NCBI RefSeq assembly: GCF_016026235.1
Contig: NZ_CP065613.1
Reading direction: 5' to 3' (one strand)
DNA length: 64,000 bases
DNA from: Escherichia coli
GTDB taxonomy: Bacteria > Pseudomonadota > Gammaproteobacteria > Enterobacterales > Enterobacteriaceae
A program made the position numbers and the translations under genes. The notes under the pieces were generated by a model. It did not search any database. It saw only the letters and a list, made by a program, of their open reading frames with translations, and was not told the origin of the DNA. Shown here one piece after another: positions 5,895-10,847 of this stretch. Each line of letters opens with the position of its first letter. The stretch's first letter is position 1.

Positions 5895-6042
5895 CGTGCG
5901 GTGTCTTGATGAATGAAATTTAGAATAACCTAAGATGGGCGGCCAAGATTTTTATGTAGAAAAACCTAAGTTTTTTGATGTAAAAAACACAAGTGTTTGA
6001 AAGTTTGTGCTTTTTATTACAGGGTGTGGAGAAAAAAGGGGA

Positions 6043-6450
6043 TTATTTGTTTGCGCTTCTTTTGCGAGCTTTGAGTAGTTCTTCAAAAAGTTTGTTGAAA
6101 TTTTCAACTCGAGCACGCATCTCTGACAACAGGGCCTTTTGCTCTGACTCAGGCAGTGCGTCGAACAGTTGAAGTAACTCTTTTTGATCTTCTGTCAGAA
6201 TGGCTGGCTGATTATCCGGGATCGGTTCGCCTGGTTGTTTATCTTCATCCCCAAAAAGAAGCCAAGTCGGTGAGCACTGAAGCGCTTGGCTCAGTGCGAA
6301 TAATCTTTTCCCCGCCGGCTGTGTTTCATCTCTTTCCCATTGAGAAATTGTTACGTGAGCCACTTTGACCAGCTTACCTAATGCGGCCTGAGACAGTTTT
6401 AATTTTTTACGCCTATGTAAGAGGCGAGCACCGAAGGTTTCGTTTTTCAT
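6043..6450 (-). CDS. DicA-like HTH (XRE-family) prophage repressor
   Basis: 135 aa; HTH LSQAALGKLVKVAHVTISQWERDETQP; resembles Qin DicA from memory; divergent from a Cro-like gene. Confidence 0.8.
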   Translation of the reverse strand: MKNETFGARLLHRRKKLKLSQAALGKLVKVAHVTISQWERDETQPAGKRLFALSQALQCSPTWLLFGDEDKQPGEPIPDNQPAILTEDQKELLQLFDALPESEQKALLSEMRARVENFNKLFEELLKARKRSANK

Positions 6451-6526
6451 ATTAGGGAATTCTAATTTTTCTTGACTTAGGTTTCTCTACGATCTAGTTT
6501 CCTTAGGAAAATCTAAGGAGCTCGAT
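6451..6526. promoter_or_regulatory. Divergent promoter/operator region between repressor and Cro-like gene
   Basis: 76-bp intergenic with imperfect inverted repeats (ttagggaattctaat; ccttaggaaaatctaagg) and an SD before 6527. Confidence 0.4.
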
Positions 6527-6754
6527 ATGTTGAAAATTGATGCTATAGCGTTTTTTGGCAGCAAAACAAAGCTTGCCAATGCCGCAGGAGTTAGGCTGGC
6601 AAGCATTGCTGCATGGGGGGAACTGGTTCCTGAAGGTCGCGCGATGCGCCTGCAAGAGGCATCTGGCGGGGAACTTCAGTACGACCCCAAAGTTTATGAC
6701 GAATATCGTAAGGCAAAACGACCTGGGAAGGTGATTCATGAAAATCAGGCATGA
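6527..6754 (+). CDS. DicC/YdaS-like Cro-type regulator
   Basis: 75 aa; resembles DicC/YdaS from memory (FGSKTKLA...GRAMRLQEASGGELQYDPKVYDEYRK). Confidence 0.7.
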   Translation: MLKIDAIAFFGSKTKLANAAGVRLASIAAWGELVPEGRAMRLQEASGGELQYDPKVYDEYRKAKRPGKVIHENQA

Positions 6755-7160
6755 GCACATCGAATCAGTGCTGTTAGCCCTGGCAGCCGAAAAAGGGCAG
6801 GCGTGGGTCGCTAACGCAATTACTGAAGAATATCTGCGGCAGGGGGGCGGCGAATTGTCTCTGGTACCAGGCAAGGACTGGAACAATCAGCAGAATATCT
6901 ATCACCGTTGGTTGAAAGGTGAAACGAAAGCGCAAAGGGAAAAAATTCAGAAACTGATCCCTGTGGTTCTGGCAATTCTTCCGCGTGAGCTGCGTCACCG
7001 ACTCTGTATCTTCGATACCCTGGAACGCCGTGCATTACTGGCGGCGCAGGAAGCGTTGAGTACGGCAATTGATGCGCATGATGATGCTGTCCAGGCCGTT
7101 TACCGGAAAGCACATTTCAGCGGTGGTGGGTCGCCCGGCGATTCTGTCGTAGTGCATTGA
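6738..7160 (+). CDS. YdaT-like protein
   Basis: 140 aa ORF overlapping the Cro-like gene end; position and size as in Rac ydaS-ydaT. Confidence 0.55.
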   Translation: MKIRHEHIESVLLALAAEKGQAWVANAITEEYLRQGGGELSLVPGKDWNNQQNIYHRWLKGETKAQREKIQKLIPVVLAILPRELRHRLCIFDTLERRALLAAQEALSTAIDAHDDAVQAVYRKAHFSGGGSPGDSVVVH

Positions 7161-7204
7161 TTGAAATTAATCGTGCCGGATTGTTTTGTTCGGTATCAGT
7201 TAAA

Positions 7205-7624
7205 TGTAACGCTGCGAGCGTTACAAGGTGAAAACAAATGGCTTCAAACTGGATAAAGCTCGAGGTTATTACGCCGGATAAGCCGGAAATATTCAGGCTT
7301 GCTGAGATTCTGAATATTGATCCAGATGCCGCATTAGGGAAGGTTATTCGCTTCTGGGCATGGGCGGATCAACAAATGATAGACGGTAATGCAGATTGTA
7401 ACGCTCGCGGCGTTACAAAAAGTGCAATAGATCGCATCACTTTTATGTCTGGTTTTGCTGATGCGTTAATTCAGGTTGGATGGCTGGTCGAAAATGACGG
7501 TGGGCTTTCTCTACCTAACTTTGAACGTCATAACGGAAAAAGCTCTAAAAAACGGGCGGTTACAAACGAGCGAGTAACAAAAATACGCGAACTGAAACGA
7601 AAAGGTAACGCTGCCAGCGTTACA
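7205..7624. repeat. Four copies of a ~21-bp palindromic iteron (TGTAACGCTnnnAGCGTTACA)
   Basis: Copies at 7205-7225, 7397-7417, 7558-7579 (variant), 7604-7624, in and just upstream of the replication gene. Confidence 0.55.
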
Positions 7625-8026
7625 CAAACGGATCAAAAAGCGTTACCAGAGGAAGAGGAAGAGGAAGATCTAAATACTGATCTCCCCCTAAATCCCCCTC
7701 GCCAAAAACGAGCGTCTAAAAAATTCGAGCCGGAGGCTATTGAGCTGCCCGATTGGTTGCCGGAAACACTCTGGCATGAGTGGGTCCGGTTCAGACAGGC
7801 ATTGCGAAAACCGATTCGAACGGAGCAGGGCGCTAACGGGGCGATACGGGAACTGGAAAAATTCCGTCAGCAGGGTTTTACACCTGAGCAGGTGATTCGA
7901 CACAGCATCGCCAATGAATACCAGGGCCTGTTCGCGCCGAAAGGTGTTCGGCCTGAGACGTTGCTCCGACAGGTTAACACCGTCTCGTTGCCGGACAGTG
8001 CGATCCCGCCAGGCTTCAGGGGGTAA
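7238..8026 (+). CDS. Replication initiator (O-like/YdaU-like)
   Basis: 262 aa; acidic linker EEEEEED; iterons embedded; followed by DnaC-like loader. Confidence 0.6.
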   Translation: MASNWIKLEVITPDKPEIFRLAEILNIDPDAALGKVIRFWAWADQQMIDGNADCNARGVTKSAIDRITFMSGFADALIQVGWLVENDGGLSLPNFERHNGKSSKKRAVTNERVTKIRELKRKGNAASVTQTDQKALPEEEEEEDLNTDLPLNPPRQKRASKKFEPEAIELPDWLPETLWHEWVRFRQALRKPIRTEQGANGAIRELEKFRQQGFTPEQVIRHSIANEYQGLFAPKGVRPETLLRQVNTVSLPDSAIPPGFRG

Positions 8027-8032
8027 CGGACC

Positions 8033-8779
8033 ATGAAAAATATTGCGACAGGCGGCGTTCTGGAACGCATCCGCCGACTGACCCCGCCACATGTAACCGC
8101 CCCATTCAGAACGGTAGCGGAGTGGCGCGAGTGGCAACTTGCTGAAGGCCAGAAACGTAGCGAGGAGATCAACCGCCTGAATCGCCAGTTGCGGGTGGAA
8201 AAAATTCTGAATCGCTCAGGCATCCAGCCGTTGCACCGTAAATGCTCGTTTGCGAATTACCAGGTGCAGAACGACGGCCAGCGATACGCGTTAAGCCAGG
8301 CGAAATCCATCGCCGATGAACTGATGACCGGGTGTACAAATTTTGCGTTCAGCGGAAAACCTGGTACCGGGAAGAATCACTTAGCGGCAGCTATCGGGAA
8401 TCGCCTGCTGAAAGACGGTCAGACAGTGATTGTGGTTACCGTGGCTGATGTTATGAGCGCCCTGCACGCCAGCTATGACGACGGGCAGTCAGGCGAAAAA
8501 TTTTTGCGGGAGCTGTGCGAAGTGGATCTGCTGGTTCTTGATGAAATTGGCATTCAGCGCGAGACGAAAAACGAGCAGGTGGTGCTGCACCAGATTGTTG
8601 ATCGCCGGACAGCGTCGATGCGCAGCGTGGGGATGCTGACAAACCTGAACTATGAGGTGATGAAAACATTGCTCGGCGAGCGGGTGATGGATCGCATGGT
8701 CATGAACGGCGGGCGCTGGGTGAATTTTAACTGGGAGAGCTGGCGTCCGAATGTTAGCCATTCGAGGGTTGTTAAGTAG
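8033..8779 (+). CDS. DnaC-like helicase loader ATPase
   Basis: 248 aa; Walker A GKPGTGKNHLAAAIG and Walker B LLVLDEIG. Confidence 0.8.
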   Translation: MKNIATGGVLERIRRLTPPHVTAPFRTVAEWREWQLAEGQKRSEEINRLNRQLRVEKILNRSGIQPLHRKCSFANYQVQNDGQRYALSQAKSIADELMTGCTNFAFSGKPGTGKNHLAAAIGNRLLKDGQTVIVVTVADVMSALHASYDDGQSGEKFLRELCEVDLLVLDEIGIQRETKNEQVVLHQIVDRRTASMRSVGMLTNLNYEVMKTLLGERVMDRMVMNGGRWVNFNWESWRPNVSHSRVVK

Positions 8780-8793
8780 TTTCAGGAGGATTT

Positions 8794-9216
8794 ATGGCGA
8801 AACCTTTTACTCCCGAACAGCGGGAAGAACTGAAGACGCGAATTGTGGAACTCGTGCATCAGGACGGTCGGGTCACGATTCGGCAGTTGTCAGATGAAAC
8901 AGGTATCAGTCGTGCGTCTGTCGGTCGCTTATGCATGGAACTGGTCGCAAGTGGTGATGTATATAATTCTGGCTACGGCTTATTCCCGTCTGAACAGGCT
9001 CGCAAGGACTGGCAAAGCGCCCGCAAAAAACTCTCGAGAGTAAAGGTGAGGAAACCGGTTGTTGTTGATCCGGACCTTATCTGGTCATTACCTGACGGAG
9101 AAATACGCCGCTACGACAGGCGCCTGAATATAATCTGTCGCGAGTGCCGGAAGAGCGAAGCTATGCAGCGTGTACTGGCTTTCTATCAGGGTAATTTTCA
9201 GGAGGCGATACTGTGA
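8794..9216 (+). CDS. Hypothetical protein, possible HTH
   Basis: 140 aa ORF with AGGAG-like SD. Confidence 0.5.
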   Translation: MAKPFTPEQREELKTRIVELVHQDGRVTIRQLSDETGISRASVGRLCMELVASGDVYNSGYGLFPSEQARKDWQSARKKLSRVKVRKPVVVDPDLIWSLPDGEIRRYDRRLNIICRECRKSEAMQRVLAFYQGNFQEAIL

Positions 9217-9630
9217 ATGAAATTAGCTATCAGGCTTCAATTACCGCTGGCATTCGCATCAAAGGAGAGGAGCATGGAAATAAAACCAGAAGATGAGTTA
9301 AGCAATATCGTTTTATTTCCGATAAAAGAGGATGACCCTCGTAATCAGGTTAATTTTCTTTATGAGCCATCGGAAAGACCATATTGCCATCACGCCTCTG
9401 TACGGGTTGACGAAAAAGAGCGTCAGGTCCGCTGTAAAATCTGCGGTGCGGTTGTGGAGCCGTTTGACTGGATGCTCTCTGTGGCAAAAAGAGAAACCAG
9501 ACTGGCAGATGATGTAAGGCTATTGCGCCAGGAGGAACAGGAAAGGCGGAGAAATATAGAAAAGCTGATACAGATTGAGCGTAACGCGAAAGCGCGGATA
9601 CGCAGGGCGACAAAATCCAGAACTGAATAA
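9217..9630 (+). CDS. Hypothetical protein with CxxC zinc-ribbon-like motif (alternative start 9274)
   Basis: 137 aa ORF; CHHASVRV...CKICGAV; SD-like aggagg upstream of both candidate starts. Confidence 0.45.
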   Translation: MKLAIRLQLPLAFASKERSMEIKPEDELSNIVLFPIKEDDPRNQVNFLYEPSERPYCHHASVRVDEKERQVRCKICGAVVEPFDWMLSVAKRETRLADDVRLLRQEEQERRRNIEKLIQIERNAKARIRRATKSRTE

Positions 9631-9777: not shown

Positions 9778-10464
9778 ATGACCCCAATAAACATATTTAT
9801 GACAGTTGCTGATTTCAAACGGCCCAAATTGGAGCTCCCAAACGGGGCAAACAAACTACTACTGCACTCTTGCTGTGCTCCATGTTCCGGTGAGGTGATG
9901 GAGGCGCTTCAGGCCTCGGGAATCGACTACACCATCTTTTTCTACAACCCGAACATTCATCCTCAGAAAGAGTATTTAATTCGTAAGGATGAGAATATTC
10001 GCTTTGCTGAACAACACGGCGTGCCGTTTATTGATGCTGATTACGACACAGACAACTGGTTTGAACGAGCCAAAGGAATGGAATGGGAGCCCGAACGAGG
10101 GATCCGTTGCACCATGTGTTTTGACATGCGTTTTGAGCGGACAGCGCTGTACGCCGCTGAAAATGGTTTCAGTGTGATCAGCAGTTCACTGGGCATTTCA
10201 CGCTGGAAAAATATGCAGCAGGTTAACGACTGTGGGCGGCGAGCCGTCGCGCATTATCCGGGCATGGTGTACTGGGATTATAACTGGCGCAAGCAGGGCG
10301 GCTCGTCCCGTATGATTGAAATCAGCAAGCGCGAAAAATTCTATCAGCAGGAATATTGTGGCTGTGTGTATTCTCTGCGCGATACCAATCTACACCGCAA
10401 ATCTCAGGGACGCCCTCTTATCAAAATTGGTCAACTCCACTACGGTAAAGAAGAGAAGGAGTGA
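9778..10464 (+). CDS. QueH-like (DUF208) epoxyqueuosine-reductase family protein
   Basis: 228 aa; motifs [11 protein letters not shown] and CGC recalled as typical of QueH/DUF208. Confidence 0.65.
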
Positions 10465-10691
10465 TTTTATGGGGCACCTTTCTGATTGATTTCATATTGG
10501 CGAGGTAAGTAGAATGACTGCGGGTGCTTGAGGCTATCTGCTTCAGGCATGAACACCAAAAGGCAGATAGAGAAAAGCCCCAGTTAACATTACGCGTCCG
10601 GCAAGACGCTTAACATTAATCTGAGGCCAATTTCATGCTTTGCACATGTAGGTTAGCCTCTTACATGCCGAAAGGCAAGGAGAAGCAGGCT

Positions 10692-10847
10692 ATGAAGCAG
10701 CAAAAGGCGATGTTAATCGCCCTGATCGTCATCTGTTTAACCGTCATAGTGACGGCACTGGTAACGAGGAAAGACCTCTGTGAGGTACGAATCCGAACCG
10801 GCCAGACGGAGGTCGCTGTCTTCGTAGACTACGAATCCAGGAAGTAA
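10692..10847 (+). CDS. hok: Hok/Gef-family type I toxin
   Basis: 51 aa MKQQKAMLIALIVICLTVIVTALVTRKDLCEVRIRTGQTEVAVF, near-canonical Hok; in-frame upstream extension from 10635 may be mok-like. Confidence 0.8.
   Translation: MKQQKAMLIALIVICLTVIVTALVTRKDLCEVRIRTGQTEVAVFVDYESRK

Follow-up and report, generated by a model that had tools for sequence, protein, structure and literature searches.

We analyzed a 64,000-nucleotide stretch of an Escherichia coli genome (assembly GCF_016026235.1, contig NZ_CP065613.1; hereafter "the window"), in which positions 5900–9300 hold the immunity and replication module of a Rac-type lambdoid prophage. Copies of one palindrome lie just before and within the replication initiator gene of this module (7238–8026, plus strand). 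In our reading, these palindromes are probably the binding sites of the initiator itself, recognized through its putative DNA-binding N-terminal domain (N-domain); the cluster at 7556–7683 would be the core of a lambda-type replication origin, and the palindromes at 7205–7225 and 7397–7417 would have auxiliary or autoregulatory roles. The sites are nonrandom, are under selection as DNA, co-vary with the N-domain, and belong to an architecture that is conserved in related phages. From this we infer what binds them, where the DNA would open, and that replication would start within 7556–7683.

Palindromes and half-sites in the initiator gene

The repeated unit is TGTAACGC(T)-N3-(A)GCGTTACA, of which the window holds three good copies. 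The encoded protein of 262 residues consists of the N-domain (about residues 1–125), a hinge, and a C-terminal domain (C-domain, residues 139–262), and the sites are distributed over the upstream gap, the N-domain, and the hinge as follows (no strand is assigned except to the tract).

7205–7225: palindrome U (upstream), TGTAACGCTGCGAGCGTTACA, perfect; in the gap between the ydaT-like gene and the initiator gene, 13 bp 5' of the initiator ATG
7397–7417: palindrome D (in-domain), TGTAACGCTCGCGGCGTTACA; codons 54–60 (C-N-A-R-G-V-T) of the N-domain
7556–7579: two decayed half-sites, GCGGTTACA and GCGAGTAACA, within GCGGTTACAAACGAGCGAGTAACA; not palindromic in the sense of the full copies
7604–7624: core (hinge) palindrome, GGTAACGCTGCCAGCGTTACA; end of the N-domain, codons 123–129 (G-N-A-A-S-V-T)
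7640–7646: terminal half-site, GCGTTAC, exact; starts 23 bp after the start of the core palindrome's right arm and ends 1 nt short of the polypurine tract
7648–7668, plus strand: polypurine tract AGAGGAAGAGGAAGAGGAAGA, 21 nt; proposed DNA-unwinding element, encoding the acidic hinge E-E-E-E-E-E
7666–7683: second, unrelated palindrome, AGATCTAAATACTGATCT, with two GATC sites; overlaps the end of the tract

The whole 64 kb was scanned with the pattern TGTAACGCTNNNAGCGTTACA, tolerating up to three mismatches, and compared with shuffled sequence. Shuffles are expected to yield 0.01 matches, and none of 100 reached four. With the pattern TGTAACGCT-N3-AGCGTTACA and at most one mismatch, there were three matches, at 7205, 7397, and 7604 (0, 1, and 1 mismatches). 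The only further match in the 64 kb, TGTAACGCAGCCAGCAGTACA at 60964–60984, has three mismatches and lies far from the module; we treat it as chance.

A first-pass annotation of this DNA, made from the sequence alone, had described four copies of a ~21-bp palindrome, spaced ~45–190 bp apart, at the start of and within the initiator open reading frame (ORF). The palindromes are real, and the observation is partly confirmed. U lies before the ATG, and both D and the core are inside the ORF. Three of the four copies stand; the fourth resolves into the two decayed half-sites at 7556–7579, which are also the only feature to which a spacing of ~45 bp can refer. The full copies start 192 and 207 bp apart. 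The interval given, 7205–7624, stops short of the hinge cluster, which continues to 7683, and leaves out the half-site at 7640–7646.

The core palindrome and the half-sites of 7556–7646 correspond to codons 107–137, between the conserved N-domain and the mosaic C-domain. The two palindromes within the ORF are in the same frame and encode similar heptapeptides (x-N-A-x-x-V-T). At the second position of 7556–7579, several relatives (L080, L083, L086–L088, and L093 of the set described below) carry an exact GCGTTAC. In the window, this half-site is degraded with its R-V-T codons kept (CGC GTT ACA to CGA GTA ACA). Around the terminal half-site and the tract, a span of 52 bp includes three GATC (Dam) sites (7631, 7667, and 7679); the window average is about three per kb.

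Palindrome sequence and N-domain lineage

A tblastn search with the N-terminal 136 residues of the initiator as the query returned homologues from phages of Escherichia, Enterobacter, Klebsiella, Salmonella, Xanthomonas/Xylella, Ralstonia, Pseudomonas, and Vibrio, at 26–96% identity. The comparison set consisted of 12 annotated phage loci and about 240 IMG/VR loci, all oriented and with the initiator ATG placed at position 1501. For 111 distinct N-domains, we searched de novo for the best repeated palindrome between -150 and +600 of the ATG. At least two copies of one palindrome were found in 103 of the 111, compared with 2 of 111 shuffled sequences, 29 of 111 upstream flanks (which hold repressor operators), and 22 of 107 downstream flanks. 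The first-pass annotation would have been contradicted by an absence of the repeats from homologous initiator genes, and they are present in most of them. The palindromes fall into the following classes.

Class A: (T)GTAACGC-N5-GCGTTAC(A); the window, TL-2011b, Xylella phage Usme, PAN70
Class B: GTCACGC-N5-GCGTGAC; IMG/VR contigs
Class C: GTCACA-N7-TGTGAC; Vibrio
Class D: GTAGACG-N6-CGTCTAC; Ralstonia
Class E: GTCCGC-N7-GCGGAC; epsilon15, BUCT711, phiPSA1
Class F: GTCCGG-N7-CCGGAC; an IMG/VR contig

Each genome uses one palindrome sequence for all of its copies, and the nearest neighbor of an N-domain carried a palindrome of the same class in 101 of 107 cases. In the Klebsiella phages L004 (class A) and L011 (class E), the C-domains are near-identical, and the N-domains and palindromes differ. 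By sequence comparison, the palindrome follows the lineage of the N-domain and not that of the C-domain, and both this pair and the pair formed by the window and K-12 ydaU (described below) are natural domain swaps. Among the 12 annotated phage loci, the initiator is also the one gene that all have in common; its neighbors differ.

Three of the sites in the window have counterparts in relatives. The core palindrome is universal, being found in every specificity class at +344 to +395. Relatives of the Rac type have a homologue of U at -32/-33, and those of ~70% identity have one at -42/-43, with the central 5 nt varying freely. For palindrome D, the counterpart is at +148/+160 in classes A to D; in class E (epsilon15-type), it is at +65. 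The half-site columns of palindrome D are invariant, and its spacer columns are variable. All distal sites of all classes are 5' of the hinge. At D itself (7385–7417), the Rac type has a four-codon insertion relative to other class-A genes, giving D-G-N-A-D-C-N-A-R-G-V-T rather than D-G-N-A-G-S-V-T, and the inserted DNA resembles a duplicated and decayed left half-site (GGTAATGCA GAT TGTAACGCT).

The pattern of variation indicates selection on the DNA of the palindromes rather than on the encoded peptide. The class-A half-site 7-mers (41 loci) are almost confined to -50 to +450 of the ATG, and a position weight matrix has near-invariant half-sites with the central 3–5 nt free. Among 42 distinct Rac-type sequences, variable columns made up 3 of 35 in the half-sites, 9 of 10 in the spacers, and 120 of 366 elsewhere. 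In the same set (counted without two frameshifted sequences), third codon positions varied in 1 of 10 cases within half-sites and in 78 of 123 elsewhere (Fisher p = 0.0013). The motif is also read differently from site to site. It is noncoding at U, encodes G-N-A-A-S-V-T at 7604, and encodes V-T-R-T-A-L-Q in BUCT554, TL-2011b, and a Klebsiella phage, while the two copies of class B are in different frames. Stems that are invariant without compensatory changes, together with a concerted change of all copies between lineages, argue for one sequence-specific recognizer and not for RNA structure.

The hinge array and the polypurine tract

When the hinge regions are aligned, the core palindrome is the center of an array of half-sites. 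In 88 of 105 loci, the 110 bp upstream of the tract hold three to five exact half-site 6-mers, where 0.05 would be expected by chance. Their orientation patterns are ><<, >><<, and >>><<. Half-sites of the same orientation are spaced 11–12 bp (97 cases) or 23 bp (27 cases) apart, and the final half-site stops 1 nt short of the tract in 74 of 105 loci.

The tract is unusual in the window and conserved in the family. At 7648–7668 it has 21 nt, and nowhere else in the 64 kb does a run of purines or pyrimidines reach 18 nt; a tract of at least 18 nt is present in 85% of the 111 homologous loci, compared with 0–1% of flanking stretches. Most lineages have the tract sequence AGAGAAGAGAAGAGAAGAGAAGA, and the Rac type has AGAGGAAGAGGAAGAGGAAGA. 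Within 6900–8200, the 40-bp stretch of lowest stability begins at 7643. Across 105 loci, the tract region is among the least stable 2% of 40-bp stretches in 68% and among the least stable 5% in 90%. In loci with a G+C content of 58–67%, that of the tract region is 31–48%. Past the tract, at the equivalent of 7666–7683, a palindrome of some kind or an AT-rich T(A/C)TAAAAGATAAA stretch is found in many relatives. A C-rich motif, CCCCCTAAATCCCCC (P-L-N-P-P or P-P-N-P-P), follows at 7684–7698 in the window and at the equivalent place in L004, L010, L011, and L014. It occurs past the tract in many lineages, sometimes within a C/G palindrome such as TCCCCCCTAACCCCCCAAGGGGGA, and the part of the gene in common with K-12 ydaU begins with it.

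Codon use within the tract bears on what is being conserved. Of 212 arginine codons in the tract, 211 are AGA, a codon that makes up 11% in the rest of the same ORFs. In the Rac type, the variant (AGAGGA)n encodes a poly-Glu peptide and is still polypurine. Together, this codon choice and the poly-Glu yet polypurine variant are evidence, at the level of sequence, for a DNA-level constraint on the tract. An argument from the reading frame was dropped, as all three frames of (AGAGA)n translate into one cyclic peptide, (REEKR)n.

The tract is also not limited to initiators of the window type. Scanning IMG/VR for the exact 23-nt tract AGAGAAGAGAAGAGAAGAGAAGA gave at least 120 loci (L253–L372). Among these listed matches, the ORF spanning the tract has the window-type N-domain in 83. 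Most of the other 37 have repeat arrays of their own immediately upstream (e.g., TTGAACC four times at 11 bp). Ten of the tract ORFs with another N-domain were compared with Pfam: two belong to DUF1376, one to Lin1244_N, and seven had no Pfam family. Examples of tract loci with other N-domain types are L283, L281, L312, L313, L258, and L342. From these sequences, the tract looks like a hinge and origin element common to several initiator families. As a tentative extension, which we consider possible but less likely than not, the (AGAGA)n mirror repeat may be a portable origin-opening element used by unrelated initiator families (the present one, DUF1376, Lin1244_N, and others), each with a lineage-specific site array fused to it. 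Because the hinge peptide is the same in every frame, recombination could then exchange cassettes of an N-domain with its sites while origin and protein stay intact. For opening, the repeat may form an intramolecular triplex (H-DNA); alternatively, a conserved host factor may read it.

The initiator N-domain

The initiator matches PHROG 2509 ("replication initiation protein", expect value [E] = 1e-89), and PHROG 678 ("O-like") matches its residues 77–236. The protein, its N-domain included, has no Pfam family at E of 0.01 or below. In a BLASTP comparison with K-12 YdaU, only residues 139–262 align (124 residues, 81% identity), and across the family the C-domains are mosaic, with similarity breaking directly past the tract.

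An AlphaFold2 model of the initiator (predicted local distance difference test score, pLDDT, 79) gives the N-domain helices at residues 16–25 and 29–46, a low-confidence loop at about 47–60 that is encoded partly by palindrome D, a helix-turn-helix at 61–80 followed by a beta-hairpin, and a long basic helix at 103–123. In the BFVD database, the nearest structural neighbors of the predicted N-domain are "Replisome organizer" (E = 8e-5, template modeling score 0.74), the N-domain of the replisome organizer of Streptococcus phage Abc2, Lin1244_N, DUF1376, and DnaD-like proteins.

Comparison with known origins

The phage lambda origin lies within gene O, where four 19-bp inverted repeats bind dimers of O and a neighboring 40-bp A+T-rich region opens on O binding (PMC5043065). 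It also requires transcription from pR (PMC5043065). In the lambda record, the four iterons in gene O are followed by AAAAGAAAAAAGAAAAGA / ...ACAAAAGAAAAAAGAAAAGATTATTCG..., with an 18-nt purine run, and then by a palindrome. The arrangement in the window is similar in several respects. The candidate origin is inside the initiator gene, at the hinge between a putative DNA-binding N-domain and a C-domain that would recruit the loader; dyad-symmetric sites, a purine-rich tract of low stability, and a palindrome occur in the same order; the adjacent, easily melted A+T-rich region has a purine-rich strand (18 nt in lambda, 21 nt in the window); and the gene order cro–cII–initiator–loader matches cro–cII–O–P. 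There are also clear differences. The N-domain falls outside the Pfam lambda-O family (Phage_rep_O), having no Pfam hit. Lambda has four tandem full 19-bp iterons at 20–24 bp spacing, whereas the core in this family is one full palindrome with single half-sites at 11–12 or 23 bp. One or two isolated palindromes lie 200–400 bp upstream here (U and D in the window), with no lambda counterpart, and the loader is DnaC-like rather than P-like. The suggestion in the first-pass annotation of a lambda-O-like origin embedded in its initiator gene is thus supported in substance; it holds for the hinge cluster at 7556–7683 and does not extend to U and D, which are about 200 bp apart. The hinge region is probably a new lambda-type origin within an initiator gene, outside the N-domain families of both lambda O and K-12 YdaU.

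The Rac prophage of E. coli K-12 has been reported to have an active origin, oriJ (PMC3945230). It shares with the window the prophage type, the gene order, the downstream ydaV-type DnaC-like loader, and the C-terminal 124 residues of the initiator. In contrast, the N-domain of YdaU is DUF1376 (by its RefSeq name), unrelated to that of the window, and ydaU lacks the GTAACGC palindromes and has AGATGTTCAAACA-type repeats instead. The label "ydaU-type", used in the first-pass annotation for initiators to compare with, holds for the C-terminal half and not for the N-domain. In K-12 MG1655, five or six of the AGATGTTCAAACA-type repeats, direct and inverted, lie mid-gene at 33-bp spacing (L014:2472–2578). 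This cluster is a candidate for the fine location of oriJ; the RefSeq annotation has no origin feature there.

In predicted structure, the N-domain resembles replisome organizers (Pfam Phage_rep_org_N, of the SPP1 G38P type), Lin1244_N, DUF1376, and DnaD-like winged-helix proteins. SPP1 G38P binds oriL repeats located inside its own gene. Initiators with DUF1376 and Lin1244_N domains also share the polypurine hinge tract, with their own repeats before it. Iteron plasmids offer a further parallel: the half-sites of the core form direct repeats about one helical turn apart, and isolated inverted repeats are found 5' of the initiator gene. Binding by dimers and by monomers of Rep has been contrasted for these plasmids, and the arrangement here resembles that split between monomer iterons and dimer operators (PMC5043065). 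Unlike in iteron plasmids, the initiator has no match to the Rep_3/WH1-WH2 families, no DnaA box with at most one mismatch in the 9-mer occurs in 6900–8100, the array flips orientation midway, and the sites are inside the coding sequence.

Proposed mechanism and alternative explanations

Under the origin model, transcription from the cro-side promoter would supply the initiator and the DnaC-like loader. The initiator would then fill the half-site array at the hinge of its own gene (7556–7579, 7604–7624, and 7640–7646), and the resulting nucleoprotein complex, on supercoiled DNA, could open the adjacent low-stability polypurine/AT stretch at 7648–7683. The C-domain would recruit the loader with host DnaB. 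U and D may be auxiliary, either looping to the core to raise the local occupancy of the initiator or acting as roadblocks that autoregulate read-through into the initiator and loader genes.

Several points weigh against this model. The core in the window is poorer than that of its relatives, with one palindrome, one exact half-site, and two decayed half-sites. The tract region in the window is about 1.9 standard deviations below mean stability (-48.0 versus -55.5, standard deviation 4.0, kcal/mol per 40 bp), and intergenic stretches near the tract are even less stable. Conservation of the tract could partly reflect the charged hinge peptide or a recombination joint. The third-position A/T excess in half-sites of high-GC loci is marginal (p = 0.047). 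The distance from distal sites to the core ranges from 207 to 300 bp across the family with no helical phasing, so a fixed loop geometry is not conserved. Finally, the searchable literature yielded no binding, footprint, or replication-start data for this initiator family, and no description of the sites turned up in searches on oriJ, ydaU, the epsilon15 origin, polypurine tracts combined with iterons, or the exact sequences of the sites and the tract.

The palindromes could instead be autoregulatory operators only, at which an initiator dimer blocks or slows transcription into its own gene and the loader gene, with the origin elsewhere. The position of U just before the ATG, the placement of D and the core in the path of cro-side transcription, and the location of the distal sites of every class 5' of the hinge are all in keeping with this, as is the fact that isolated inverted repeats in iteron plasmids act as Rep-dimer operators. 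However, no sigma-70-like promoter overlaps any site in 6400–8100, and pure operators would have no need of a hinge site set in a phased half-site array abutting a conserved low-stability tract, as at the lambda origin. We regard operators alone as an unlikely explanation, and an operator role for U and D is compatible with the origin model. Alternatively, the hinge DNA, the tract in particular, might be kept as a module-boundary patch of homology at which N-domain cassettes recombine with C-domain cassettes, or because it encodes a charged hinge peptide, with no part in strand opening. The mosaic C-domains, with similarity breaking directly after the tract, fit such a role; so does the occurrence of the exact 23-mer after DUF1376 and Lin1244_N N-domains, and with (REEKR)n in all frames, frame changes fail to separate selection on DNA from selection on the peptide. 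Against it are the near-exclusive use of AGA for tract arginines, the Rac variant that changes to poly-Glu and remains polypurine, the half-site array that directly abuts every tract, and the lambda purine run at a functional AT-rich origin region. This explanation, which we find quite improbable, covers the tract only and leaves the palindromes unexplained.

It is very improbable, in our estimation, that the binder is another protein, such as the YdaT/CII-like protein, the Cro-like protein, the repressor, DUF977, or a host factor. Genes for several helix-turn-helix proteins lie in the vicinity, and a weak YdaT-box-like sequence (7157–7174) lies just upstream of U, but the site class follows the initiator N-domain, and the initiator alone is constant among the 12 annotated loci. 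YdaT was rejected as the binder of the palindromes, as its footprinted box, TTGATT-N6-AATCAA (PMC11879457), is a different sequence. Control at the level of RNA, in which hairpins in the mRNA (9-bp stem, 3-nt loop) would govern stability, processing, or translation of the initiator message and the opposite strand could terminate antisense transcripts, is hardly credible given how the sites vary. Every site is able to form a hairpin, both arms change together between classes, and the core palindrome, read on the minus strand, precedes a T-rich run and has a terminator-like score. Within a class, though, the stems are invariant with no compensatory pairs and the loops are free; a single sequence per genome that changes with the N-domain lineage suggests a common sequence-specific recognizer; the core includes unpaired single half-sites in direct repeat; and the sense strand has no T-run after the hairpins. 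As for chance, or a by-product of the repeated peptide x-N-A-x-x-V-T, the shared frame and similar heptapeptides of the two in-ORF copies speak for it. This explanation is refuted, with a probability we put at next to nil, by the expectation of 0.01 copies, by the noncoding copy and the other frames used in relatives, and by conservation of synonymous positions within the half-sites.

A search of 6400–8100 for a G+C-rich hairpin with a T-run (an intrinsic terminator) found none on the plus strand and a single hit on the minus strand, at 7605–7623, where the core palindrome is followed by CTTTTCGTTT. This terminator-like hairpin could stop antisense transcripts or be a by-product of the A-rich sense strand.

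Implications

The analysis narrows a testable candidate origin to within ~130 bp (7556–7683) in a prophage type found in about one in eight complete E. coli genomes, and the same layout, with lineage-specific sites, recurs in more than 100 related phages. By homology, origins are predicted in epsilon15-like Salmonella phages, the Shiga toxin (Stx) phage TL-2011b, and phages of Klebsiella, Xanthomonas/Xylella, Ralstonia, Pseudomonas, and Vibrio, for which the fetched records annotate no origin. With at least six site classes paired to N-domain lineages, the family is a ready system for studying the evolution of initiator specificity, and the classes could aid in predicting whether co-resident prophages have compatible replication. 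That several initiator families share the tract suggests an opening element common to them, and the element could serve as a compact, phage-derived replicon of switchable specificity. If the tract is indeed portable, the co-variation of half-sites and N-domains would amount to a readable protein–DNA recognition code for phage origins and replication incompatibility.

Genetic context of the module

At the DNA level, the module shares 95% identity with "Escherichia phage Rac" (MN652886). Among 5426 complete E. coli genomes, 1420 have matches to the module DNA, and in 678 at least 80% of the query is matched. The genes around the initiator gene (plus strand; the features above lie in or next to it) are as follows.

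6043–6450, minus strand: repressor gene, divergent from the cro side
6527–6754, plus strand: Cro-like gene (Pfam P22_Cro/HTH_3 among the module hits)
6738–7160, plus strand: YdaT/CII-like gene (Pfam YdaT_toxin; PHROG 163, "CII-like")
7238–8026, plus strand: initiator gene
8033–8779, plus strand: DnaC-like helicase loader gene, ydaV-like (Pfam IstB_IS21, 1e-19, and Bac_DnaA ATPase; PHROG 50, "DnaC-like helicase loader", 1e-82)

The loader gene is directly 3' of the initiator gene, and the Cro-like and YdaT/CII-like genes are 5' of it in the same orientation; the gap between the ydaT-like gene and the initiator ATG is 77 bp. Two sequences resemble the YdaT box. One, GTGATTCATGAAAATCAG at 6731–6748, overlaps the ydaT ATG, as in K-12, and the other, TTGATTGAAATTAATCGT at 7157–7174, overlaps the ydaT stop codon, 31 nt upstream of U. 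The number of YdaT-box-like matches in the window is not above chance. Shortly 3' of the replication module are a gene for QueH (epoxyqueuosine reductase; 9778–10464, Pfam E = 2e-65) and a Hok/Gef toxin gene (10635–10847, E = 1e-22).

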